Shown piece after piece: positions 4,556-47,919 of a DNA stretch of 52,935 nucleotides. Within the stretch, counting starts at the first letter, position 1; each line of letters opens with the position of its first letter. The notes under the pieces are model-generated. The model was not told the origin of the DNA, did not search any database, and saw only the letters and a list, made by a program, of their open reading frames with translations. The translations under genes were made by a program, and so were the position numbers. This DNA is from a virus (taxonomy: Duplodnaviria > Caudoviricetes): positions 1 through 52,935 of IMG/VR virus record IMGVR_UViG_3300042868_013143. One strand, written 5' to 3'.

Positions 4556-4611
4556 TAAATCCATTTTGAAATTTAAATTAGATTTATTAGATTTATTTAA
4601 AAATATAAATT

Positions 4612-4806
4612 ATGAAAAAACCAGAAAAAGACCAAAAGAAAAAATTGGCTAAAATCAAAAGAGGAAATAAAAGAACTCAAAGATTTAAAGAATCTAGAGA
4701 AGTTATTGCCAAAAGAAGAAAGCAAACAATGTTAGCAAAAGCGCTTAGACAGAAAAAAATGGATGAGCTAATGGATAAAATTTTGCAATCTAGATTTAAT
4801 CAATAA
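4612..4806 (+). CDS. Small basic hypothetical protein
   Basis: K/R-rich ORF between nrdA and a terminator. Confidence 0.6.
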   Translation: MKKPEKDQKKKLAKIKRGNKRTQRFKESREVIAKRRKQTMLAKALRQKKMDELMDKILQSRFNQ

Positions 4807-4810
4807 AAAT

Positions 4811-4836
4811 TAAGCCCCTCGTGGGCTTATTTTTTT
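4811..4836 (+). terminator. Intrinsic terminator
   Basis: TAAGCCC-CTCGT-GGGCTTA followed by a T run. Confidence 0.75.
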
Positions 4837-4870
4837 GTTTTTTCATATATTTATATAAAATAGTTTTATT

Positions 4871-5170
4871 GTGTCAAAAGATAAATTAAAAGTGTTAGCT
4901 GAAAAAATTGAGCAAGTTGTTAATGCAACTGCTGAAGCACAGGCTCAAAGAAAGAAGCCTGTTAAAGTTGTTTTTGATAAAAGCTCTTCAGCTCCTTGGG
5001 AAGTTATATTTTCCGAAAGAGGTTTTTTGGTAGGAGATACAAGATTATCTTTTGAGGAAATAAAAAATGCCTTATCTAAAAATTATCAAATTGTTTTAGA
5101 TGCAGGAAATGGTTTAGTGTTGGATGGAGTAAAAATGCAATCGATTTTAAAGTATGAGGATAGAGTTTAA
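4871..5170 (+). CDS. Hypothetical protein
   Basis: GTG-start ORF preceded by TATTTATA at 4848. Confidence 0.7.
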   Translation: MSKDKLKVLAEKIEQVVNATAEAQAQRKKPVKVVFDKSSSAPWEVIFSERGFLVGDTRLSFEEIKNALSKNYQIVLDAGNGLVLDGVKMQSILKYEDRV

Positions 5171-5425
5171 TTTAAGGGTATATAGATTAATTTATGGGTA
5201 AAAAGAAAGAAGTATTAAGGAGCGTATTTACAAACAAACAGAAAACTAATAAAAAAATAAAAATCACAAATTCTTTATTGGTTTCCCCCTTATATATTAC
5301 AGGGGTTTAATTTTTTATGCTGACAATCACATAAAAGATTTCTATTTATTATAATTTTTTTGTTTAAAAGAAAAAAAATAGTTACTTTTGTTGGCAGTCA
5401 TTGTTGGCTATAAACTTTACATATT

Positions 5426-5863
5426 ATGGATAATCAAGCAAAACAAGTATTACAAAAAGGTATATTGGGAGAGCAAGCGGAAAATCCCTACGCAAATGTA
5501 GGTGAGATGGTTCCTCAAGAACAGCCTGTTGATCATCAAGCGGCATTTGAAGCGCAAATGAAACAGGCAAAAGCTCAACCACAACCACAAGTTCAGAATG
5601 AGGGTCAAACATATGCATTTGAGCAAAATGGTACATATTGCAGAACTGGAAATTTTGAAAATGGCTTCATCGAAACTGATTTAAAAATAGTGAAACAGAA
5701 AGGTATTGAAGAAAGATGTGTTTCATTTACTATAATAACTCAGGCAGAAACGGCTGAATTATATGAGGAAAACAATTTAATATTGGTTAAAATGGAAATG
5801 CGCTCTGAAGAACAATTTAATAATTTCAAAAATTTTGTGGCAAATTTACAATGGAATGATTAA
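5426..5863 (+). CDS. Hypothetical protein with Q/P-rich N-terminus
   Basis: 145-aa ORF co-oriented with the sigma gene. Confidence 0.75.
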   Translation: MDNQAKQVLQKGILGEQAENPYANVGEMVPQEQPVDHQAAFEAQMKQAKAQPQPQVQNEGQTYAFEQNGTYCRTGNFENGFIETDLKIVKQKGIEERCVSFTIITQAETAELYEENNLILVKMEMRSEEQFNNFKNFVANLQWND

Positions 5864-7030: not shown

Positions 7031-8518
7031 ATGGCAAAAAGAAATATAGTAAAGAAGTCTCAACAGCAGACTGCTCAATTAGATTTATTATCTGAAATTG
7101 ATAAGCAATCTTATACTCCAGAACAAAGAAAGTTTGTGGAGTTTGATGGAGAAGAATCTGTAATTTTAGCAGCAACAGCTGGCGCAGGTAAAACTTATAG
7201 TTGTGTGCAAAGAGTAAAGGAGTTATTAAAAAGGGGTGTGGATCCAAATAAAATAATATTCTTCAGTTTTACAAAAGCAGCGACAGAGGAGCTAAAAGGT
7301 AGAGTTGGGAATAAAGATATAAAGATTACTACAATACACGCTTTTTGCTATCACATATTAGCAACCACAGGAAAGTTTAAAGATATTGCTAGTTTTTATG
7401 ATTTCATCGAATGGTTCAAGGTAAAATACAAGCCAAATCATTTTGCTGACAAAGAAACTAAGGAGTTCTTCTATGACACCATTTCAACCTTATATGAAGA
7501 TGCTGAATTTATTTCATCTTCTATAGCATCTTTTAAGTTGCAATCTGCTGATGGAATAAAAGCAAAACTGCCTTCATACATCAACGAGTATAATAAGTTT
7601 TTACGTGAAAAGAAGTCAAGAGACTTCTCAGATATGCTTATTGAGGTTAGAGATATGTTTAAGGAAGATAAGTGGCTTAGAATGTTTAGAGGTAAGTATG
7701 ACTATATATTTATCGACGAGTATCAAGATACAAGTACAATACAACTTCAAATATTGCTAGCATTAAATGCAAAGTATTATTATTTAATTGGAGATAGAAA
7801 TCAATCAATATACGGCTATTCAGGGGCAAATTGTAGACTTCTTGAAAGTATGGTTAAGGGTAGAAGAAAAACTACTGAATTAAGCCTTTCTGTAAATTTC
7901 AGAAGTGATAAAGTAATTGTTGAAAATTCAAATAAGTTCTCATCATTAAAGGCTGTGGCTAATAGCAAAGAAGAGGGGTATATTGATGATAAGGTAATGC
8001 TTAAAATGGATGACCTAATAGAAGTATTAAAACTTCCTCAAGAGGTTGCTGTTTTGGTTAGAACAAACGATGTTATTAAAAAGTTAGAAAGACAGCTTCT
8101 TAAGAAAAAAGTTCCAATGAAGTATTTTAATTTCATCACAGAAAAAGATGTGGAAAACTTTGAGAAAGATGTTGTGACAGATGCTTTAAAAAATAAGCTG
8201 AAATTAGTTAGAGAGTTTTTTGATAATAAAGATGAAAATGTAATATCATTCATTAAAAGATATCAAGGAATGAATAAGTTTGTTACAACAATTCATAAAA
8301 GTAAAGGAAGAGAGTTTCACACTTGTGTTGTAGTAAATTCGATAGCGCCTGAACTATTGGAACAAAATCCAAATTTTCACAAACTAACAAAGAAGCAAGT
8401 TGCTCAAATTAGTTTTGATCCTGATGACGATGATGATGTGGAACCTAGAAATATTCATTATGTAGCTGTATCTAGAAGTAAGCATAAGTTATACTTTATG
8501 ATTTATATGACTAAATAA
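7031..8518 (+). CDS. UvrD/Rep-like superfamily 1 helicase
   Basis: ATAGAGKT, IDEYQD, GDRNQSIY, NFRS, TIHKSKGREF, YVAVSR. Confidence 0.93.
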   Translation: MAKRNIVKKSQQQTAQLDLLSEIDKQSYTPEQRKFVEFDGEESVILAATAGAGKTYSCVQRVKELLKRGVDPNKIIFFSFTKAATEELKGRVGNKDIKITTIHAFCYHILATTGKFKDIASFYDFIEWFKVKYKPNHFADKETKEFFYDTISTLYEDAEFISSSIASFKLQSADGIKAKLPSYINEYNKFLREKKSRDFSDMLIEVRDMFKEDKWLRMFRGKYDYIFIDEYQDTSTIQLQILLALNAKYYYLIGDRNQSIYGYSGANCRLLESMVKGRRKTTELSLSVNFRSDKVIVENSNKFSSLKAVANSKEEGYIDDKVMLKMDDLIEVLKLPQEVAVLVRTNDVIKKLERQLLKKKVPMKYFNFITEKDVENFEKDVVTDALKNKLKLVREFFDNKDENVISFIKRYQGMNKFVTTIHKSKGREFHTCVVVNSIAPELLEQNPNFHKLTKKQVAQISFDPDDDDDVEPRNIHYVAVSRSKHKLYFMIYMTK

Positions 8519-23038: not shown

Positions 23039-23062
23039 TTTTTAAAAATATTTTGTTTTTTG

Positions 23063-23090
23063 TGTAACTTTTTTTATATTTGTACGTATA
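23063..23090 (+). promoter_or_regulatory. TGTAAC-N16-CGTA (ECF-like) promoter of tRNA operon 1
   Basis: One of 7 copies with invariant 16-nt spacer. Confidence 0.75.
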
Positions 23091-23121
23091 AAAGAAAAAA
23101 ATACATATTTATAAAGGTAAA

Positions 23122-23205
23122 ATGAAAACAACAGTAACAAATAGGAGATCTAGTTGGTCGAGTTCGAGAAGAGCCGAATCAGGGATTCTATTGTCTGCGC
23201 TGTAA
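23122..23205 (+). CDS. Attenuator leader peptide 1 (MKTTVTNRRSSWSSSRRAESGILLSAL)
   Basis: Ten consecutive Arg/Ser/Trp codons matching the downstream tRNAs; contains antiterminator strand GAATCAGGG. Confidence 0.8.
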   Translation: MKTTVTNRRSSWSSSRRAESGILLSAL

Positions 23206-23235
23206 AGATATAGTGCTTGAGCACAAGCTAATTTG

Positions 23236-23274
23236 AAACCCTGATTCTAAAAAAGAGTCAGGGTTTTTTATTTT
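23236..23274 (+). terminator. Attenuator terminator 1
   Basis: AAACCCTGATTCT-AAAAA-AGAGTCAGGGTTT plus T run; 5' arm is also complementary to 23176-23184. Confidence 0.85.
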
Positions 23275-23727: not shown

Positions 23728-23814
23728 GGAGGAATAAGAGCAGTTGGTCTAAGCTTGGCGGTCTTGAAAACCGTAGGCCCTAGTGGTGTGTGAGTTCGAG
23801 TCTCACTTCCTCCG
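23728..23814 (+). tRNA. tRNA-Ser(UGA)
   Basis: GGAGGAA/TTCCTCC acceptor, GCGGT-CTTGAAA-ACCGT, long variable arm, TTCGAGT loop, G73. Confidence 0.92.
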
Positions 23815-23830
23815 CTGAAAAAAAATTGAT

Positions 23831-24010
23831 ATGCAAGAGAGAATGATGTACTTAGGTAAGGAAAAAAACAAAAAAGTATATGAAAATTTTGATGCTAATT
23901 TTGATAAGTACAAAAAAAGGGCAATTGATAAAGGGTATAAAAATCCTAAGTTAAAAATTCTCAAAGAGAAATCAATAGTGAAATTCTATGTTGTTGTAGA
24001 GATAGAATAG
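23831..24010 (+). CDS. Small basic hypothetical protein (59 aa) inside the tRNA cluster
   Basis: Open frame ATG..TAG filling the spacer between two tRNAs. Confidence 0.6.
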   Translation: MQERMMYLGKEKNKKVYENFDANFDKYKKRAIDKGYKNPKLKILKEKSIVKFYVVVEIE

Positions 24011-24026
24011 AATTTTAAAATAACAT

Positions 24027-24097
24027 ACAGATGACAGGCTTGGTGTCGGTGGGAACTCCAAATTCTTCACGAGTCGCTTCGATTGCGGCCATCTGTG
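24027..24097 (+). tRNA. tRNA-Trp(CCA), atypical D arm
   Basis: ACAGATG/CATCTGT acceptor, GGGAA-CTCCAAA-TTCTT, GTCGC-TTCGATT-GCGGC, G73. Confidence 0.75.
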
Positions 24098-24106
24098 CTA
24101 TAATAA

Positions 24107-24192
24107 GGAAGATAAAGCGACAAGGTTGTCGTCCTCGCCTGCTAAGCGTAGGGTTCTGAAAGATGAATGGGAATCGTTTTCTCTGTCTTCCG
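24107..24192 (+). tRNA. tRNA-Ser(GCU), atypical T loop and anticodon stem
   Basis: GGAAGAT/GTCTTCC, CGC-CTGCTAA-GCG, long variable arm, G73. Confidence 0.75.
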
Positions 24193-24207
24193 CAAAAAAT
24201 AAATTAT

Positions 24208-24282
24208 GGCTCCGTAGCTCAATTGGAATAGAGCATTGGGATTCTACCCCAACGGTTATAGGTTCGAATCCTATCGGAGTTA
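24208..24282 (+). tRNA. tRNA-Arg(UCU)
   Basis: Canonical cloverleaf; TTGGG-ATTCTAC-CCCAA. Confidence 0.92.
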
Positions 24283-24299
24283 CAAGGGTGAAATAATAT

Positions 24300-24374
24300 G
24301 CCCCCATAGCTCAACTGCATTAGAGCACCGTTTTTCTACAGCGTCGGTTACAGGTTGGAATCCTGTTGGGGGTA
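24300..24374 (+). tRNA. tRNA-Arg(UCU), second copy with C19-G56
   Basis: GCCCCCA/TGGGGGT, loop TTTCTAC, T arm ACAGG-TTGGAAT-CCTGT. Confidence 0.82.
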
Positions 24375-24395
24375 CAAAAAAAATTTTTGTATTTG

Positions 24396-24433: not shown

Positions 24434-24883
24434 TGGCGAATTCTTTGGAGAATGATGTGCAGTCATGAGCCGTCATGCAAGGGACACCAAATCATAATAT
24501 GGTGTTAATGGATCGAAGCCCCGATTCGCCACTTTAATGTTCTTTGAAAAATTGAAAGTGAATGTGCAACGAAAGTTCTTGTAGGCATACAAGAGTGAGG
24601 TGGGTTCGAATCTCGTTTAATAATCCCAATGACATGGTGGGAGCCAAGTAGTTGAGAACACATTATATCCATTTTAGGGGAGGCGCTGATAAATTCCCCA
24701 TAATAGTGCTGAGTAAACAGGATCAGCACCACTTTCAATTGCATTAAAACCACTCAAGCGTAAAAAGGTCGTAAGTTGGGGAAAGGCACGGAGCAGATAC
24801 CAGAAATGACTCGTCAGAGGATATGGAATACGTTGACAGAAGATCCCAATGTTTTGACCCCGTGCAAGCCTCTGAGTGGTTTT
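24434..24883 (+). ncRNA. Unidentified structured ncRNA region (three closed domains)
   Basis: Closing helices 24434/24531, 24550/24740, 24746/24883; internal hairpins; GC-richer than flanks; no credible ORF. Confidence 0.65.
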
Positions 24884-24889
24884 TTATTT

Positions 24890-24996
24890 AGTCAGGTGGC
24901 GGAGTGGCTTAACGCTGAGCATACATAGAGTCTGGGAATGTGGTATGTATGATACCTATACACGGGGACTCGCAGGTTCGAATCCTGTCCTGGTTA
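24890..24996 (+). ncRNA. tRNA-like RNA with intact acceptor, D and T arms but no canonical anticodon arm
   Basis: AGTCAGG/CCTGGTT, GCG-GAGTGGCTTAA-CGC, GCAGG-TTCGAAT-CCTGT; ~55-nt insert in the middle. Confidence 0.7.
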
Positions 24997-25031
24997 CTAT
25001 ATTTTTTGTAAAAAAATTTATATTTATTATT

Positions 25032-25067
25032 ATGAAAACAAATAAAATATCTCTTCAGTTCTGGTAG
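25032..25067 (+). CDS. Possible third leader peptide (MKTNKISLQFW)
   Basis: MKT start 3 nt after TATTTATT; FW-stop lies in a hairpin ending 5 nt before the next ATG. Confidence 0.4.
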   Translation: MKTNKISLQFW

Positions 25068-25084
25068 TTTAAACCAGAATACAT

Positions 25085-25783
25085 ATGAATAGAAAAAATC
25101 CCCACTTTAAAGAGTGGTTAAAAGTTTGGGAGGAAGTCCAAACTTTAATTGATTACAAACGTAATCGTAATTGGATTCCATTGGAAAAGCCTTACAGAAA
25201 AGGCTATTGGATGTCTTTTGACCTTCGTGAAGATATTAAAAATCGTGAAGATGCTTGGGTGTTTTATACATGCATTGAATTGTTTGGTACACATACTTGG
25301 TGTAAAGACAAAACAATGACATATAAATCTAGAAAGAAAAAGCCAGAGCCAATTGCCCTTGAGAAGAAGTTAATATCAGAAGAGAAATATGAAAACTTGC
25401 CAAGCGCAGTTCAAAAATATTTTTCAGAATCATCTAGCTACAATAAAGGCTGGAATCCATATAGAAAAACTTATTATTGTAATGTTCCAGATTATTTCTT
25501 TGTATACAAGTTAGAACCTAGATGGATAACACACTATCAGGAAGTAGATTCTGTTATTGAGCAAGAAATAAGTGAGAAGCGTGATTATGTTGATAAGAGC
25601 CCAAAATTTCAAAATGTAGGAAAGTGGAGTTATAATGCTCCAAAGTCATTCTGCAAATTTTTAAACAGAAGCGATAGAAGACTTAACAAACAAGTTCTTC
25701 AAAAAAACTTGATGTCAGAAGATTGGGATAAGTATGAATATAAATATAATCACAGACATTACGCAAAATGGTTGTATTGGTAA
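25085..25783 (+). CDS. Basic, aromatic-rich hypothetical protein
   Basis: 232-aa ORF, IPLEKPYRKGYW..FDLREDI. Confidence 0.8.
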   Translation: MNRKNPHFKEWLKVWEEVQTLIDYKRNRNWIPLEKPYRKGYWMSFDLREDIKNREDAWVFYTCIELFGTHTWCKDKTMTYKSRKKKPEPIALEKKLISEEKYENLPSAVQKYFSESSSYNKGWNPYRKTYYCNVPDYFFVYKLEPRWITHYQEVDSVIEQEISEKRDYVDKSPKFQNVGKWSYNAPKSFCKFLNRSDRRLNKQVLQKNLMSEDWDKYEYKYNHRHYAKWLYW

Positions 25784-32435: not shown

Positions 32436-32455
32436 TACAAATATTTTTTTTGTAT

Positions 32456-32481
32456 TGTAACTTTTTGTAATTTTGGTCGTA
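32456..32481 (+). promoter_or_regulatory. TGTAAC-N16-CGTA promoter
   Basis: TGTAAC 32456, CGTA 32478. Confidence 0.72.
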
Positions 32482-32501
32482 GAATATAAAAAAACAAGTA
32501 A

Positions 32502-39883: not shown

Positions 39884-41326
39884 ATGGCAGAAGAAAAATC
39901 AAAATCAAAAAATCAAAGAGACATTATCGTTAGTGTAATGAGATCAAAATTTAATGAATATTCAGATTCTGAGTTATATCCATCAGCAGCATTAGGTGTA
40001 GAAATAAACTTATCAGAGTTGAAAAATGCTTGCAAGAATAGTTCTAGGTCAAAGATTGATCCAAACACAAAAAGCTTTAGACCATATAGTGTTGACTACG
40101 TTAAAAACGATGTACTTCCAAGTATGATATTGGAATATGGATTTAGTCAAAAAGAAAAAGGTCTAACAGTAAAAAGTGAAGCTGGAATGTTTGCAGTTAG
40201 GTTTACAGATAACTCTGTAATGATGTTTGCTCAACGAATAGTTGGTATGGGCAGAAATCAATCTGTTGAGACATATGCACTTGCAACAAGACAAACATTG
40301 AATAAATACTATTCATATCTTAACAGACAGGCTAAGATAAATTCAAAACCAAAAGTAGGACTATTTAAAATATCAGTAAAATCAAGTCCTATGGGAGATA
40401 GGCTAAATTATACTCCTATTAAAGGTAAAATGACTGAGAAGAAAGTCTATCACCAAAATAAAAAGCTTGTTGAAAATGATGTAGAACAATTCTTTGATAA
40501 CGTTAATTTGTATACACGATTCAATCAGCCTGGATCAAGAAGGCTATTATTGGTTGGAGAACCTGGTGGGGGTAAGACAAGTGCTGCAAATGAAATAGCT
40601 ATGAAACTGTCTGAAAAAATGTGTGTTGTAATCGCAACAGATTTAAAAGCTGTTATGATGCATACTTACAATATTTCAAAAGCAGAAATGCCAACACTTA
40701 TTATATTGGAAGACGCAGAATCAACAATTCCTTGGGGTAATTCAGATGTTCTTAATTACTTGGATGGAATTAATCAACCAAGAACAACAAAGGGTTGTTA
40801 TATGATTTTGACAACAAACTATCCTCAAAGAATCGAGCCGAGAGTTCTTAAAAGACCAGGTAGAATTGATAAGATTATTAAATTCGGAGTCCTAGACCAA
40901 GTAAATTCTATTATGTGTGCAAAGCATTATTTTGAAGGAATTTTGTTTGATTCAAATAAAGATAAAGCATCTACAGTAGAAGAAATGTTGAAACAGGTAT
41001 ATGAGAAGATTATTGCTGTTGATAATGAGACTGGAATGACAGGAGCTCAAATAAAAAACCTTTCAGAGGCAACAATTTCTTATGCAATATCTAATAACAC
41101 TGAAAAGATAAATATTGATACAATCATTGCTGTTAGAGATCAGTTAAGTAAAGATTTGAAAGATGTTTATGAAATGGCTGATGATGAAAGTATGAGCGCA
41201 AATAAGCCATCTCCAATTGGATTTGATATCTCAGACGGCAAGCGAAAAAATACATGGGAAGAATCTTTGGACTGGGATTCTATAATAAATCCAGAAAAAA
41301 GTAAAGGAAATGATTTGAGTTTTTAA
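39884..41326 (+). CDS. AAA+ ATPase
   Basis: GEPGGGKT, ILEDAE, LNYLDG, TTNYP, RPGRID; IGF near the C-terminus. Confidence 0.88.
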   Translation: MAEEKSKSKNQRDIIVSVMRSKFNEYSDSELYPSAALGVEINLSELKNACKNSSRSKIDPNTKSFRPYSVDYVKNDVLPSMILEYGFSQKEKGLTVKSEAGMFAVRFTDNSVMMFAQRIVGMGRNQSVETYALATRQTLNKYYSYLNRQAKINSKPKVGLFKISVKSSPMGDRLNYTPIKGKMTEKKVYHQNKKLVENDVEQFFDNVNLYTRFNQPGSRRLLLVGEPGGGKTSAANEIAMKLSEKMCVVIATDLKAVMMHTYNISKAEMPTLIILEDAESTIPWGNSDVLNYLDGINQPRTTKGCYMILTTNYPQRIEPRVLKRPGRIDKIIKFGVLDQVNSIMCAKHYFEGILFDSNKDKASTVEEMLKQVYEKIIAVDNETGMTGAQIKNLSEATISYAISNNTEKINIDTIIAVRDQLSKDLKDVYEMADDESMSANKPSPIGFDISDGKRKNTWEESLDWDSIINPEKSKGNDLSF

Positions 41327-41397
41327 AAAAAATTCATACTGATTATCAGACATTTAAATGATATTTTTATTTTTTTTAAAAAAAGTTTTGTTTTTTG

Positions 41398-41425
41398 TGT
41401 AACTTTTTTTAATTTTGTACGTATA
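41398..41425 (+). promoter_or_regulatory. TGTAAC-N16-CGTA promoter of tRNA operon 2
   Basis: Near-identical to the 23063 copy, including flanks. Confidence 0.78.
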
Positions 41426-41476
41426 AATTAAAGAAAACAAAATTTTATAACTATTTAGAATTAAAATCATTTAAAG

Positions 41477-41605
41477 ATGAAAACAGTATTAACATATACA
41501 GCAAATATCCCCGCTATGCCGATGAACGGCTTAGGGAATGGGTATGCCCCTGCCGATTATAGCTTGGGAGAAGCGAGTGTGTTATACTTTAAAGTAATCT
41601 TATGA
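41477..41605 (+). CDS. Attenuator leader peptide 2 (MKTVLTYTANIPAMPMNGLGNGYAPADYSLGEASVLYFKVIL)
   Basis: 14 of 17 codons at 41510-41560 are Pro/Ala/Met/Gly/Tyr/Asp; contains antiterminator strand 41570-41586. Confidence 0.78.
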   Translation: MKTVLTYTANIPAMPMNGLGNGYAPADYSLGEASVLYFKVIL

Positions 41606-41634
41606 TAGATTAGATTTAAATAAAAAAATATAAC

Positions 41635-41670
41635 AAAAGCTCGTTTCGAAAGATTCGAGCTTTTTTGTTT
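41635..41670 (+). terminator. Attenuator terminator 2
   Basis: AAAAGCTCG..TC-GAAA-GA..CGAGCTTTT plus T run. Confidence 0.82.
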
Positions 41671-41729
41671 TATAAACGTTTTTTGACATATTGGTGATGA
41701 AGTTGAAAGCTAACAAGGTTAGCAAATTT

Positions 41730-41805
41730 CTGGGTGTGGAGGAATTGGTGCCTCGCCTGCTTTGGGAGCAGGAGCTTAATGCAGGTTCGAGTCCTGTCAC
41801 CCAGA
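41730..41805 (+). tRNA. tRNA-Pro(UGG)
   Basis: CTGGGTG/CACCCAG, CCTGC-TTTGGGA-GCAGG, A73. Confidence 0.92.
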
Positions 41806-41815
41806 CAAATAAAAT

Positions 41816-41896
41816 GGCTACGGCGCATAATGGCTGGTGTACCCGACTGTCTATCGGGCGTGAATAACGTAGAGGGTTCGATTCCCTTCGTAGCCG
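41816..41896 (+). tRNA. tRNA-Asp(GUC) with extended variable arm
   Basis: GGCTACG/CGTAGCC, CCCGA-CTGTCTA-TCGGG, G73. Confidence 0.85.
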
Positions 41897-41942
41897 CAAA
41901 TAGCCTTAAATATCCAAGTAACCCCTTGGTGGCTTTATAAAC

Positions 41943-42025
41943 TGGAAGGTGGGTGAGTGGTTAAAACCAACAGACTGTAAATCTGTTCTCGCAAGGGTAC
42001 GGCGGTTCGAATCCGTCCCTTCCAA
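41943..42025 (+). tRNA. tRNA-Tyr(GUA)
   Basis: TGGAAGG/CCTTCCA, ACAGA-CTGTAAA-TCTGT, long variable arm. Confidence 0.92.
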
Positions 42026-42031
42026 CAACAA

Positions 42032-42125
42032 CTAGCGATGATCGAGAGGTTGAAGATGTCCGACTTGGAATCGGATGCGGGCACACAGTAGGTGTCTGCC
42101 GTGGGTTCGAATCCCGCTCGCTAGA
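42032..42125 (+). tRNA. tRNA-Pro(UGG) with long variable arm and A37
   Basis: CTAGCGA/TCGCTAG (C1-G72, A73), TCCGA-CTTGGAA-TCGGA, 8-bp variable stem. Confidence 0.8.
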
Positions 42126-42271
42126 CTAAATTTAAAAACAATTAAAATGATAGGTCAAGGAGGCAACAGCTTGGACGCCTGAGTAAACACGATAGGGTCG
42201 AGCTAAGAAAAAAAGAAATTGGAAGTAAGAAACATAGAAAGCTTAGAAAGTATTCTGATGGTTTTAATGAG

Positions 42272-42664
42272 ATGTTTACATTCTTCCTACAAGGTTACAG
42301 AAAGGGTCTGTTTAGTTTCTGCGGATCCATCGTTGTAACAGAATTTGATGTAAATGGAGATGAAGGCAAGTTTTGTTTCAGAAGATTAGAAAATGGAGAG
42401 TACAAACCTGGTGAAATTCCCAAGACAAGACATTCAAATATTTTAAAGGGTGTTATATCAGGAAAGAAGGGCTGGGGTTTGTGGGTTGATCAATGGTCAG
42501 ATGGAATTGTTGATTGGACATTTACAGAAGAGGAAATATTAAGTGAGTTTGAAAAGAGGAGTGTTAAAATCCCCGAACCACTTCTACGAGATTTCTACAA
42601 TAGAATCGATAAGAAGAAGAGAAAGAGAAACTTAGAGTACTTTGAAATGTTGAATAAAGAATAA
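42272..42664 (+). CDS. Hypothetical protein inside the tRNA cluster (start uncertain)
   Basis: Frame is open from 42146 but the first ATG is at 42272. Confidence 0.65.
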   Translation: MFTFFLQGYRKGLFSFCGSIVVTEFDVNGDEGKFCFRRLENGEYKPGEIPKTRHSNILKGVISGKKGWGLWVDQWSDGIVDWTFTEEEILSEFEKRSVKIPEPLLRDFYNRIDKKKRKRNLEYFEMLNKE

Positions 42665-42670
42665 TAAAAT

Positions 42671-42744
42671 GGGGCTATGGTGACAACTGGCTAACACGCT
42701 GCACTTGCACTGCAGAGATGGGGAATCATACTCCTCTAGCTCCA
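42671..42744 (+). tRNA. tRNA-Ala(UGC), atypical T loop
   Basis: GGGGCTA/TAGCTCC with G3-U70, CTGCA-CTTGCAC-TGCAG, T loop ATCATAC. Confidence 0.85.
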
Positions 42745-42800
42745 CTAACAGAAATGGTAATCCGATACCGCAAACTGAAAACTAAAGAAAATCGGAATAA

Positions 42801-42872
42801 GGGAGTATCGACAGGGTCTGGTCGTGTCTGTAAAACATCGCCTTATTGGTTCAATTCCAATTGCTCCCACCA
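42801..42872 (+). tRNA. tRNA-Tyr(GUA)-like, short variable loop, encoded CCA
   Basis: GGGAGTA/TGCTCCC-ACCA, TGT-CTGTAAA-ACA, ATTGG-TTCAATT-CCAAT. Confidence 0.7.
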
Positions 42873-42922
42873 AATGGTTGATTTTGTACTTTTTTTGACT
42901 ATTTATTTAGAAATAGATAGAT

Positions 42923-43543
42923 ATGCCAAGAAAAGAAAAGAAGTATCACTTCATTTATAAAACGACGAACTTATTGAGTGGTAAGTATTACATTGGAATG
43001 CACTCCACAGAAAACCTAGAAGATGGTTATTTGGGCTCAGGAAAAAGGTTGAGATATTCCATAAATAAATATGGTGCGGAAAACCATAAGAGAGAAATAC
43101 TTGAATTTGTTGACTCAAGAAAAGAGTTAATAAATAGAGAAAAAGAAATTGTTAATTTAGATGAAGTTGCAAAAGAGGAGTGCATGAACTTAATGGTTGG
43201 AGGTAAAGGTGGTTTTACACCAAACATTCAAAAAAAAGGTATTAGTGCTTGGTTAGATAAATACAAAGGAGGAGAAAGTCATAAAGAGTGGGCTAAAAAA
43301 GGCGGAATTAAGAGGTTTGAATTATATGGGATTCCAAAAAAATTCAAACCTGATTGGGTTGGCAGAAAACACACAGAAGAAACAAAAGAAAAAATGAGAA
43401 TTTCCAGCAAAGGTAAGAGTACTGGAAGTTTAAATTCACAATACGGAACTTTTTGGATTACGAAAGATGGGATTAACAAGAAAATAAAAAAAGAAGAATT
43501 AGATTTTTTTATCCAACAAGGATGGATTAGGGGTAGAAAATAA
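42923..43543 (+). CDS. SegB-like GIY-YIG homing endonuclease with NUMOD3 motif
   Basis: FIYKTTN..KYYIGMH..GYLGSG; GRKHTEETKEKM. Confidence 0.9.
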   Translation: MPRKEKKYHFIYKTTNLLSGKYYIGMHSTENLEDGYLGSGKRLRYSINKYGAENHKREILEFVDSRKELINREKEIVNLDEVAKEECMNLMVGGKGGFTPNIQKKGISAWLDKYKGGESHKEWAKKGGIKRFELYGIPKKFKPDWVGRKHTEETKEKMRISSKGKSTGSLNSQYGTFWITKDGINKKIKKEELDFFIQQGWIRGRK

Positions 43544-43549
43544 ATTAAT

Positions 43550-43622
43550 GCGGTAGTAGCTCAGTTGGTAGAGCACCGTCCTTCCAAGTCGGGGGTCGCA
43601 AGTTCGAGCCTTGTCTACCGCT
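43550..43622 (+). tRNA. tRNA-Gly(UCC)
   Basis: GCGGTAG/CTACCGC, loop CTTCCAA, U73. Confidence 0.92.
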
Positions 43623-43628
43623 CTAAAT

Positions 43629-43777
43629 AAGAGGCTATATAGATTTGTTACTTCTATGTGGAACAGTTGGCGCAAGCCTTCGCAGTGTTCGAATCCTGCT
43701 CCCCCGACGAGGTTTTAATTCGGGGGATAGCCAAGTGGTAAAGGCAACTGTAAGAATTACTTCTATGATTTCCTCTT
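43629..43777 (+). ncRNA. YrlA-like Y RNA (circularly permuted tRNA-like domain)
   Basis: Order is T arm, closed acceptor stem, D arm; terminal helix AAGAGG/CCTCTT; GTTACTTC motif. Confidence 0.7.
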
Positions 43778-43781
43778 AAAT

Positions 43782-43854
43782 GCGATAGTAGCTCAGTTGA
43801 TAGAGTACAACCTTGCCAAGGTTGGGGTCGTGGGTTTGAGCCCCATCTATCGCT
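43782..43854 (+). tRNA. tRNA-Gly(GCC) with A19-U56
   Basis: GCGATAG/CTATCGC, CAACC-TTGCCAA-GGTTG, U73. Confidence 0.9.
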
Positions 43855-43907
43855 CTAAAAATGTAGATTAATATAAGTAACAAAGCGGGTGAAAGTCCCG
43901 CAAACTT

Positions 43908-43979
43908 GCCGATGTCGTATAATGATAGTACGGGTCCCTCATAAGGACTAGGTTTAGGGTTTGATTCCCTTCATCGGTA
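43908..43979 (+). tRNA. tRNA-Met(CAU) elongator (or Ile2) with A19-U56
   Basis: GCCGATG/CATCGGT, GGTCC-CTCATAA-GGACT. Confidence 0.82.
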
Positions 43980-44052
43980 CAAAAATTACAATTTTTTTAA
44001 CATGACGTTTAAATTGGTGCAAAAATTACAATTTTTTTAACATCACCTTTAA
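43976..44052. repeat. Tandem direct repeat with a 40-nt period
   Basis: CAAAAATTACAATTTTTTTAACAT at 43980 and 44020, with matching flanks. Confidence 0.85.
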
Positions 44053-45981: not shown

Positions 45982-47919
45982 ATGAAAAAAATGTTGTTTA
46001 TTTCACCTCATTTATCTACTGGTGGCGCTCCTCAGTTCACTCTTAGTAAAATTGAAATCTTAAAAGATTCATATAATATATTATGTGTTGAAAAAGATTT
46101 CATAGCACCTGAGTTTGTGGTTCAAAGAAATAAGATATCTGAAATACTTGGAGATAAGTTTATTTCTTTAGGTGAAGATAAAATGGAGCTTATTAGGATT
46201 ATAGAAGAATTTAATCCAGACATAATTTCTATGGAAGAAATTCCTGAATTTTTTCTAGATGATTACTTGACAGAAAAAATATATAATACAAATAGGAATT
46301 ATTTAATCTTTGAAACAACTCATGATTCCTCTTTTCCGACAAATGAAAAAAGGTGGTTTCCTGATAAGTTTATTTTTGTATCTGCTTTTAACGCTTTTAG
46401 ATATTCTGATTTTGATATACCTTACGAGGTTATTGAATATCCAGTTAACTTTAAAGAGAAAAATGTTTATGCAAAAGAAAAGCTGGGCTTAGATAAAAGT
46501 TGGAAGCATATTGTGAATGTTGGTTTGTTTACGCCTAGAAAGAACCAAAAATATGTTTTTGAGTTGGCAAAAAAATTGCAGAAACACAAAATAAAGTTTC
46601 ATTTTATCGGAAATCAAGCAGATAATTTTGCTGATTATTGGAAGCCCCTTATGGTTAATAAACCAGAGAATTGTATTGTTTGGGGTGAGAGATCAGATGT
46701 TTTAGATTTCCTAGAGGCGAGTGATTTGTTTTTATTTACATCAAAAGGGGATAAAAACAATAAAGAATTAAACCCAATAGCAATAAAAGAAGCTTTGGAA
46801 TATAGAATGCCTATGATGATGTTCAATTTGGATGTGTATTGTGGTAAATATGATGATTATGAAAATATTACTTTTTTAAGTGGAGACTTAGAGAGGGATG
46901 CAAATGAAATACTTAAATTATTTGAAATGGAAAATATGGATGGAATGTTTAGTACGCAATATGAGCGTGAAGAAAATAAAATCACTATAAATTATTATGG
47001 TGAAAATCCAATAAATTTAAATGTGTCTGTAAAATGTATGACATCAGGTGCGCCAATGTATTGGTTTAACTATCAGGCAAGTCAAGGGGGTGGTTGGTTT
47101 ATAATTCCAATTCCAGCACATATTTTTAAATTCTATCAAAATACAAATTTTAGAGGTTTCTTATTGGAGTTTTATGATGAACAAAATAAACTGAAACACT
47201 CAGAGACAATTATAGTTAATGATATACTTCCAAAGTTAACACCTATAAATTTCATGCCTTTTGATTGTAGTTATAGAAACTATATTGAGTTTTTTGCAGA
47301 TGATATTTATGGAGGCTTTAATTTAAATGATTTAGATTTAGTGTTGGACATTGGTGCAAACATAGGTTTGTTTGCAAAATATATGTATAATAAGAATGCA
47401 AAAAAAGTAATACTTGTAGAAGCGAATCCGTTGATAAAAGAAAATATTGAAACGGTAATGGGTTTTGAAATAGAAAAATCAGCTATATATTTAGCTCCTT
47501 TATTTTCTGAAAAGAAAACAGTGTCTTTTAATTATTCTTCTACAAACTCAACAATAGGAACTTTGGTTATGGATTCTAGCGTTAGCGGTTATGAGGAATT
47601 AGATTCTACAATTGAATTGGAAACTATAACTTTAGATGAGGTTATAACAGAAAATTACATTGAAAGGATATCTTTGTTTAAATGTGATATTGAGGGTGGA
47701 GAATATGATTTAATTGAATCTCTTACTCCTGAACATATGAATATTATAGATAGGTTTTTAATTGAATTCCACCAAAACAAAGGACAGCTTCAAGATATGG
47801 TAAACAAGCTTGAATCTTATGGTTTTGAATGTGAGTTTTATAAGTTGGACATGGCTAATAAAATTAAGGTTGATATAAATTGTGAGCATGGTGTTTTGAT
47901 AACAAACAAAAAAATTTAA
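45982..47919 (+). CDS. GT4-like glycosyltransferase fused to an FkbM methyltransferase
   Basis: HLSTGGAP, RKNQ, ELNPIAIKEAL; LDIGANIG, KCDIEGGE. Confidence 0.88.
   Translation: MKKMLFISPHLSTGGAPQFTLSKIEILKDSYNILCVEKDFIAPEFVVQRNKISEILGDKFISLGEDKMELIRIIEEFNPDIISMEEIPEFFLDDYLTEKIYNTNRNYLIFETTHDSSFPTNEKRWFPDKFIFVSAFNAFRYSDFDIPYEVIEYPVNFKEKNVYAKEKLGLDKSWKHIVNVGLFTPRKNQKYVFELAKKLQKHKIKFHFIGNQADNFADYWKPLMVNKPENCIVWGERSDVLDFLEASDLFLFTSKGDKNNKELNPIAIKEALEYRMPMMMFNLDVYCGKYDDYENITFLSGDLERDANEILKLFEMENMDGMFSTQYEREENKITINYYGENPINLNVSVKCMTSGAPMYWFNYQASQGGGWFIIPIPAHIFKFYQNTNFRGFLLEFYDEQNKLKHSETIIVNDILPKLTPINFMPFDCSYRNYIEFFADDIYGGFNLNDLDLVLDIGANIGLFAKYMYNKNAKKVILVEANPLIKENIETVMGFEIEKSAIYLAPLFSEKKTVSFNYSSTNSTIGTLVMDSSVSGYEELDSTIELETITLDEVITENYIERISLFKCDIEGGEYDLIESLTPEHMNIIDRFLIEFHQNKGQLQDMVNKLESYGFECEFYKLDMANKIKVDINCEHGVLITNKKI

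Follow-up and report, generated by a model that had tools for sequence, protein, structure and literature searches.

The window analysed here is a whole stretch of phage DNA, the complete IMG/VR record IMGVR_UViG_3300042868_013143 of 52,935 bases, with a G+C content of ~31% across its length. At about 41 kb, a promoter of the type TGTAAC-N16-CGTA is followed by a short open reading frame (ORF), an intrinsic terminator and a cluster of tRNA genes. The short ORF is written largely in the amino acids of the tRNAs behind it, and a strand in its last third can pair with the 5′ arm of the terminator. An earlier note on this DNA, made without database searches, had read this arrangement as a leader-peptide attenuator mirroring the tRNA cluster. 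That core reading is supported by the conservation of the leader, by synonymous changes within it, by covariation of the alternative helix and by the finding of other units of the same construction. We think it likely that the element is a ribosome-mediated (leader-peptide) transcription attenuator that gates the phage tRNA operon by sensing tRNA supply.

The regulatory core (41510-41560) specifies, in order, Pro, Ala, Met, Pro, Met, Asn, Gly, Leu, Gly, Asn, Gly, Tyr, Ala, Pro, Ala, Asp, Tyr. Thus, 14 of the 17 belong to the set Pro/Ala/Met/Gly/Tyr/Asp, and the recount agrees with the earlier one, including the two Asn and one Leu that fall outside the set. The background used here and below consists of 1249 short ORFs of 20–60 amino acids from all six frames of four records, and two of these match 14/17 for the same set. 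The core codons had also been described as GC-rich, and eight of the 12 Pro, Ala and Gly codons of the leader do end in G or C, versus shares of 11% for Pro, 17% for Ala and 21% for Gly in the long open frames. The leader at 41477-41605 lies upstream of the tRNAs on the same predicted transcript, which runs from the promoter to the tRNAs. When the tRNA set is taken from ARAGORN, 12 of the 14 in-set codons of the leader are readable under strict wobble by an anticodon in the cluster.

The promoter lies in a block (41380-41450) that is repeated at 23045-23114 with 85% identity and at 32444-32497. The TGTAAC-N16-CGTA motif itself has seven copies within the window and stands at the head of every unit found in relatives. 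The 5′ untranslated region (UTR) holds a conserved word, TAACTATTTA, which retrieved further units when used as a search pattern. The terminator hairpin (41635-41664, −14.3 kcal/mol) is present in the minimum free energy (MFE) fold of 41430-41700 (z = −4.1). It is unlisted in a simple consensus terminator scan with loops of 3–8 because its loop is longer than that. The 65-nt gap between the terminator and the first tRNA contains no promoter motif.

The pairing proposed in the earlier note, of 41570-41586 with 41629-41647, is exact, and RNAduplex chooses the same partners (41569-41587 with 41629-41647) at −17.2 kcal/mol, compared with −8.6 ± 1.8 for shuffled upstream sequence; none of 200 shuffles is as low. 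In all 22 units compared, the best partner of the terminator 5′ arm falls within a span from 43 nt upstream to 6 nt downstream of the end of the stop codon, and in 10 of the 22 the duplex beats all 200 shuffles. A covariance model of the antiterminator was built from seven units of the Pro/Asp/Tyr/Ala/Gly/Met class, and it also retrieved four paralogous units of other classes. In the alignment of this model, called A4, 74% of cells pair, versus 56% in shuffles. The covariation score is 0.428, versus 0.153 in shuffled alignments (0 of 500 reach the observed value) and 0.07–0.14 when the partners are slid, and both sides have changed in 10 of 13 pairs. The earlier proposal stood or fell with such covariation in relatives, and it is found.

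The same proposal also depended on conservation of the leader, and the ORF is present in all the relatives found. At four IMG/VR loci reached through the neighbouring AAA ATPase (76–92% identity), the promoter, ORF, terminator and tRNAs all occupy the corresponding place. Homologues of the leader peptide in a large protein collection form ten clusters with 81–100% identity, in which residues 1–30 hardly vary and the final twelve are variable. In two more distant homologues, L012 and L013 (56% and 66% identity), the ORF is kept, the terminator stems are different, and the variable 3′ end of the ORF has changed such that its pairing with the new terminator arm is kept. Relatives show eight codon variants within the eight codons of block 41540-41563, and six of these are synonymous changes at the third position. 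As a separate observation, 41300-41730, with the promoter, leader and terminator, is nucleotide-identical in L007 and L008, in which the adjacent AAA ATPase is just 78% identical. This suggests either mosaic exchange or very strong constraint. One relative alone, L009, carries a purine-rich stretch of ~230 nt (7790-8015) between the terminator and the first tRNA, and a contig from an RNA run bridges that stretch from the terminator.

The window contains a second unit of this kind, paralogous unit 1, at 23 kb. None of the 1249 background ORFs reaches the 10/10 Arg/Ser/Trp window of its leader. Its antiterminator (23175-23189, −18.2 kcal/mol) is likewise reached by 0 of 200 shuffles. The Trp member of the tRNA set behind it (24027-24098) appears at relaxed ARAGORN thresholds only and has no Rfam support at E ≤ 1. 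A guessed tRNA-Ser(GCU) in 24030-24200 was rejected, with no support from either Rfam (E ≤ 1) or relaxed ARAGORN. No relatives of the 143-aa neighbour of unit 1 were found in viral_contigs. Among relatives, the leaders of the Ser/Arg/Trp class scramble the order of the residues and keep the composition.

Eight related IMG/VR records carry units for further sets: Asn/His/Thr/Lys/Ile/Leu, Lys, Leu/Cys, Gln/Phe/Arg(CGN)/Val and Glu. One of these was found by prediction. The third tRNA cluster of G003 (Asn, Asn, His, Thr, Thr, Lys, Lys, Ile, Leu) was checked upstream, and there stood the same promoter and a 34-codon ORF with a 10/10 window for that tRNA set. Across nine sequence sets, a finder for promoter, short ORF and terminator returned 26 candidates, all 26 with a terminator by construction of the finder, and ARAGORN tRNAs lie behind 21 of them. 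Four candidates were dropped for want of an ARAGORN tRNA behind them (G001 45093; G005a 5719, which overlaps a tRNA; G005b 1736; G007a 6511). A fifth, G005b 4714, is a Glu leader with tRNAs behind it by Rfam only; the identities that relaxed and intron-mode ARAGORN give to the Rfam-only tRNAs of the Lys and Glu leaders of G005 are implausible. The L055 leader could not be placed on the G006 stretch and is excluded from every count. A scan of viral contigs with the promoter/5′-UTR pattern gave 32 stretches, of which 11 are real units; the other 21, in which no leader-type ORF with tRNAs is present, appear to be chance matches. The promoter motif occurs in 0 of the 21 gaps from terminator to tRNA, the shortest of which are 2–66 nt.

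The match between leader and tRNA set can be examined within a single genome in G005, a relative of 372 kb that CheckV rates 100% complete. Its six leaders with ARAGORN tRNAs have best ten-codon windows of 10, 9, 9, 5, 8 and 10 for their own tRNA set and of 1–5 for the other sets. By both window counts and binomial scores, the true pairing of leaders to clusters is the single best of the 720 permutations. For 19 of 20 distinct units, the frame of the ORF is strictly the best of six for the tRNA-set match. The match extends to codons: of 254 in-set codons, a cluster anticodon can read 228 under strict wobble, and most of the others belong to family boxes and face U34 tRNAs. All 15 Arg codons of the four leaders that precede Arg(UCU/CCU) are AGR. 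Where Arg(ACG) follows the leader, CGY makes up three of four Arg codons, versus 13% of the Arg codons in long frames. The observed window is reached by 0–10 of the background ORFs for 14 of the 20 distinct leaders. The weaker ones are Phe/Tyr (reached by 577), Gln/Arg/Val (75), Glu (33), Lys (29) and Arg/Trp (28), and the sixth of the remaining six is that of G004, a same-sequence copy that was not scored against the background.

Two features of these relatives stand apart from the mirror rule. On the reverse complement of positions 1-80000 of G005, at 4592-5750 and 46295-46367, there are three tRNAs, two with the anticodon CUA and one with UUA, that may be suppressors and hint at stop-codon recoding in this phage group. 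One of the CUA tRNAs begins 16 nt past a promoter motif and has no leader ORF. In the Glu units (G008 24639-25186 and G005 338473-338837), a tRNA-Met lies between the promoter and the leader ORF, where it would be made regardless of termination at the attenuator.

Table 1. Features of the two tRNA units of the window, with the basis of each call.
Feature	Coordinates	Strand	Basis
Paralogous unit 1: promoter, leader, terminator	23063-23270	+	Recurrent promoter block, finder
Unit 1 leader, 27 codons	23122-23205	+	Ten consecutive Arg/Ser/Trp codons at 23143-23172
Unit 1 terminator	23236-23266	+	Finder
Unit 1 tRNAs: Ser(UGA), Trp(CCA)-like at 24027-24098, Arg(UCU) x2	23728-24375	+	ARAGORN
Phage promoter, TGTAAC-N16-CGTA type, start of leader transcript	41398-41425	+	Recurring block and motif
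Conserved 5′-UTR word TAACTATTTA, between promoter and start codon	41448-41457	+	Window, L012, L013, G003
Leader ORF, 42 codons, ATG to TGA	41477-41605	+	Homologues and best-matching frame
Regulatory core, Pro/Ala/Met/Gly/Tyr/Asp codons 14/17	41510-41560	+	Codon count
Antiterminator 5′ strand, in last third of ORF	41569-41587	+	RNAduplex, A4 covariation
Antiterminator 3′ strand, overlapping terminator 5′ arm	41629-41647	+	Pairing, RNAduplex, covariation
Intrinsic terminator, hairpin 41635-41664 and T run	41635-41670	+	Own finder, MFE fold
tRNA-Pro(UGG), tRNA-Asp(GUC), tRNA-Tyr(GUA), 95-nt tRNA with anticodon UGG	41730-42126	+	ARAGORN, Rfam
130-aa ORF within cluster	42272-42664	+	No Pfam or PHROG family
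tRNA-Ala(UGC)	42671-42745	+	Rfam 44.8 bits, relaxed ARAGORN
Tyr(GUA)-like tRNA	42801-42872	+	ARAGORN at 85-90% thresholds only
GIY-YIG homing endonuclease inserted in cluster	42923-43543	+	phrog_314, E = 5.8e-36
tRNA-Gly(UCC), permuted tRNA-like stretch, tRNA-Gly(GCC), spacer hairpin, tRNA-Met(CAU)	43550-43980	+	ARAGORN, Rfam, comparison with L009

The cluster behind the 41-kb leader had been described as nine tRNAs for six amino acids. Seven are called by ARAGORN at default settings (Pro, Asp, Tyr, Pro, Gly, Gly, Met), and tRNA-Ala (42671-42744 in Rfam) and the Tyr-like tRNA bring the number to nine and the amino acids to six; the Tyr-like member is weak, with just a chance-level tRNA-Sec match in Rfam. 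From the out-of-set codons of the leader, the earlier note had also predicted a tRNA-Asn in the ancestral or a related cluster. The eight homologous clusters examined contain no tRNA-Asn or tRNA-Leu, and these tRNAs are located in a separate cluster with its own Asn/His/Thr/Lys/Ile/Leu leader. The two Asn codons and the one Leu codon of the window are replaced in more distant relatives by in-set codons for Gly, Ala, Met and Pro. A hairpin at 43885-43901 had been put forward as a possible remnant of a T arm. It is instead a conserved spacer hairpin before tRNA-Met, with a counterpart in L009 (9906-9922) whose second pair has changed from C-G to T-A in a compensatory manner, and it may be a processing signal. 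The exact hairpin word occurs in 0 of 91 loci.

Several other features of the cluster were noted. The second UGG tRNA (42032-42126) has a long extra arm, its counterparts in relatives measure 95–97 nt, and its identity as a tRNA-Pro is doubtful. Directly after it, a conserved block at 42140-42215, seen also at 7700-7770 in L013 and 6010-6080 in L007, contains an AAGGAGG-like word, which is unusual for a genome without Shine–Dalgarno sites. The homing endonuclease has weak Pfam matches to SegE_GIY-YIG and NUMOD3. The sites of phrog_314 endonucleases differ among homologous clusters (42923-43543 in the window, ~8060-8697 in L006, ~6954-7606 in L013), and therefore the gene is mobile within the cluster. 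In 43629-43777, the 3′ half of a tRNA-like structure (T arm and acceptor 3′ strand) precedes a 5′ half with the acceptor 5′ strand and the D arm, and an 11-base word occurs twice, at ~43648 and ~43764. Neither ARAGORN nor Rfam makes a call within that stretch.

The window also encodes a DNA ligase, an AAA ATPase and the GIY-YIG homing endonuclease beside its two tRNA clusters. Because of this gene content and a CheckV completeness of 16%, it is taken as a fragment of a very large phage. The DNA runs that contain the stretch are from lake and other freshwater metagenomes, and the source is an uncultured freshwater giant phage. Of 45 long ORFs, none follows a Shine–Dalgarno-like word, which 9.6% of random 15-mers contain, and the sequence upstream of them is rich in A. 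The absence of Shine–Dalgarno sites together with A-rich upstream bases is typical of Bacteroidota, and the host may belong to that phylum. A nucleotide search of cultured phages gave matches limited to tRNAs and the endonuclease. A protein search with the AAA ATPase gave no close isolate, the top match being a crAss-like phage at 37.5% identity. The name moraphage, from the accessible part of PMC12619734, is a lead only as to the lineage.

Since the leader is written in the amino acids of the tRNAs that follow, those tRNAs are probably made only when ribosomes read its codons slowly. Translation of the leader, control of termination and this direction of the response are inferred. Transcription would begin at the TGTAAC-N16-CGTA promoter, and the 42-codon leader would be translated close behind the polymerase. 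If the Pro/Ala/Met/Gly/Tyr/Asp core is read fast, the ribosome would cover 41569-41587 while the polymerase makes 41629-41670; the terminator hairpin would then form, and the transcript would stop short of the tRNAs. If any core codon is slow for too little charged cognate tRNA, the ribosome would wait and leave 41569-41587 free to pair with 41629-41647. No terminator would then form, and the polymerase would read through into the nine tRNA genes. The logic of the gate would be an OR over six amino acids. The new tRNAs would quicken the decoding of the leader and turn the operon off, a negative feedback on decoding capacity. Such an attenuator would be kinetic and not thermodynamic.

A snapshot of co-transcriptional folding over 21 units, made without the 3′ arm of the terminator, agrees with the order of events just given. 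The 5′ arm is already paired with P 0.69 when the ribosome stands mid-core and with P 0.32 when it has six codons to go to the stop. The MFE fold of the 41-kb unit, a single fold of one unit, pairs codons 3–8 with the antiterminator strand, as a possible anti-antiterminator would.

A number of results weigh against the attenuator as just described. In the same snapshot model, free RNA gives 0.68, like the stalled state at 0.69, and this model gives no sign of an anti-antiterminator (the classical 1:2 helix) across the 21 units, so readthrough would be expected from a leader that is not translated. No switch at all is seen when ribosome masks are applied in equilibrium folding. The terminator stays above P = 0.5 in all 21 free leaders, and a mid-core ribosome brings it below 0.5 in only one of 21; in the 41-kb unit it reaches ~0.5 only with the A site at codons 7–11 or 27. 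The switch, if real, must therefore be kinetic. In nine of the 22 units, the antiterminator duplex is no better than 9–52 of the 200 shuffles, and A4 was fitted to the very structure under test, which favours that structure. The match over the whole leader is weak in three units (Lys, p = 0.16; Phe/Tyr, p = 0.24; Glu, p = 0.28). The units are homologous within a class, so they amount to about seven independent cases and not 21. The tRNA sets are mostly ARAGORN defaults, some members appearing only at relaxed thresholds. In L009, the sole Asp codon of the leader has become Tyr; the cluster there keeps tRNA-Asp, and ARAGORN finds no tRNA-Tyr in it. As for transcription, one freshwater metatranscriptome contig of 193 nt and depth 13 spans 41503-41694, and contigs of a relative in RNA runs span the ORF and terminator region. 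Such contigs are weak evidence, of presence in RNA libraries and nothing more, since they are blind to transcript ends and DNA is possible in such libraries. Small shares of the RNA runs were sampled, and parts of the stretch without cover in X15–X19 are uninformative.

Part of this evidence could also suit a terminator that is constitutive or leaky, with the short ORF as an independent small gene and the tRNAs expressed by unregulated partial readthrough or from unrecognised promoters. The terminator is indeed favoured at equilibrium in every modelled ribosome state, and the near invariance of the first 30 residues in close relatives is what a functional peptide would show. A functional peptide, however, would not track the following tRNA set over seven classes, nor its codons, and would not scramble its order while keeping its composition as the Ser/Arg/Trp class does. 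Covariation with the terminator arm falls in the same part of the ORF in which the peptide varies. None of the 21 gaps has the promoter motif, and some are just 2–30 nt. We regard this explanation as improbable. In another reading, the nascent peptide arrests the ribosome, so that the attenuator would depend on translation and not on the supply of cognate tRNA. Pro-rich stretches slow ribosomes, according to the accessible parts of PMC8129111 and PMC11611912, and the order in 41540-41563 is kept in six of the seven distinct leaders of the Pro/Asp/Tyr/Ala/Gly/Met class. Arrest gives no reason for the leader amino acids and isoacceptor-specific codons to match the tRNAs that follow, and other classes (Ser/Arg/Trp) lose the order and keep the composition. 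We consider it very unlikely.

A further explanation makes the open frame incidental and has a protein or an uncharged tRNA bind the GC-rich leader RNA, either in the manner of a T-box or as protein-mediated antitermination. The core is unusually GC-rich and forms local hairpins, one change in L006 retains a hairpin pair as G-U, and in the snapshot model the antiterminator is present even in free RNA. Against this, the changes in 41540-41563 are mostly synonymous, and in 19 of 20 units the match to the tRNA set singles out one frame, which opens with ATG or GTG and closes before the terminator. A single specifier would leave unexplained the runs of 10–17 cognate codons for up to six amino acids. 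Rfam gives no T-box or cis-regulatory match at gathering score or E ≤ 5 beyond chance-level matches to the terminator. We give an RNA-only switch hardly any credence and retain the leader-peptide attenuator as the preferred reading.

If the leader-peptide attenuator is real, the logic of attenuation would apply to the tRNA genes themselves, and the sensed decoding speed would be corrected directly by the product. Such control would explain when large phages with near-complete tRNA sets make which tRNAs, and it would account for the conserved grouping of phage tRNA genes in fixed amino-acid sets. Whether phage tRNAs are a response to codon-usage mismatch, host shut-off or tRNA-cleaving defences would become testable, as the leaders reveal the codons that are under watch. 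Being compact and modular, the leaders could also act as codon-specific sensors of translation capacity. More tentatively, it is possible that nearly all of the genetic code is divided in these phages among about seven separately switched tRNA regulons, each with a codon-matched leader. The supply of tRNA would then be gauged codon by codon through the ribosome, and scarce, degraded or defence-cleaved host tRNAs would be replaced selectively, with feedback. This would amount to a homeostat of translation supply, of a kind not known to have been described for tRNA genes in any organism.

The textbook cases of leader-peptide attenuation are genes of amino-acid biosynthesis, and what the mechanism reports there is the supply of amino acids. 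The enterobacterial examples include trpL, hisL, pheL and leuL and the multivalent thrL and ilvL/ivbL. Leader-peptide attenuation also operates with the pheM leader on pheST, the phenylalanyl-tRNA synthetase genes of E. coli. The principle for amino-acid operons is set out in the accessible part of PMC1183508. The phage units share with the enterobacterial attenuators a short ORF whose translation we presume, a run of regulatory codons, an intrinsic terminator before the regulated genes, and an alternative helix that uses the terminator 5′ arm at a place that a translating ribosome would cover. In having several amino acids per leader, the phage design is most like thrL and ilvL. It differs in being phage-borne, with up to six amino acids per leader and a set of leaders that covers most or all amino acids, and no 1:2 anti-antiterminator was seen in the models of folding with ribosomes in place. 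It also regulates tRNAs and not biosynthetic enzymes, and therefore its output acts directly on the signal, the speed of decoding. No Rfam leader family matches at gathering score; Thr_leader reaches 19.5 bits versus the 55 required (E = 1.7), over the terminator only.

The pheST system resembles the phage units in placing a gene of the translation apparatus, and not of biosynthesis, under a leader peptide. It concerns a cellular synthetase and one amino acid, whereas the phage units yield the tRNAs themselves. T-box riboswitches likewise read the status of tRNA and choose between terminator and antiterminator. Unlike the phage units, in which the signal is a run of codons, they bind uncharged tRNA without translation, through one specifier codon and the T-box sequence, and RF00230, with its specifier loop and T-box sequence, has no match here at gathering score or E ≤ 5. 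A full-text literature search, with subscription journals largely outside it, returned no description of leader-peptide control of tRNA genes, and the terms "attenuat" and "leader" occur 0 times in the accessible text of PMC11555353. That phage tRNAs offset the loss or cleavage of host tRNAs is described in the accessible parts of PMC11555353 and PMC12409363. Those tRNAs, as far as these parts go, are like the ones studied here in supplying decoding capacity during infection, and they are driven by strong promoters, whereas in the phage units described here expression is apparently conditional on the speed of decoding.

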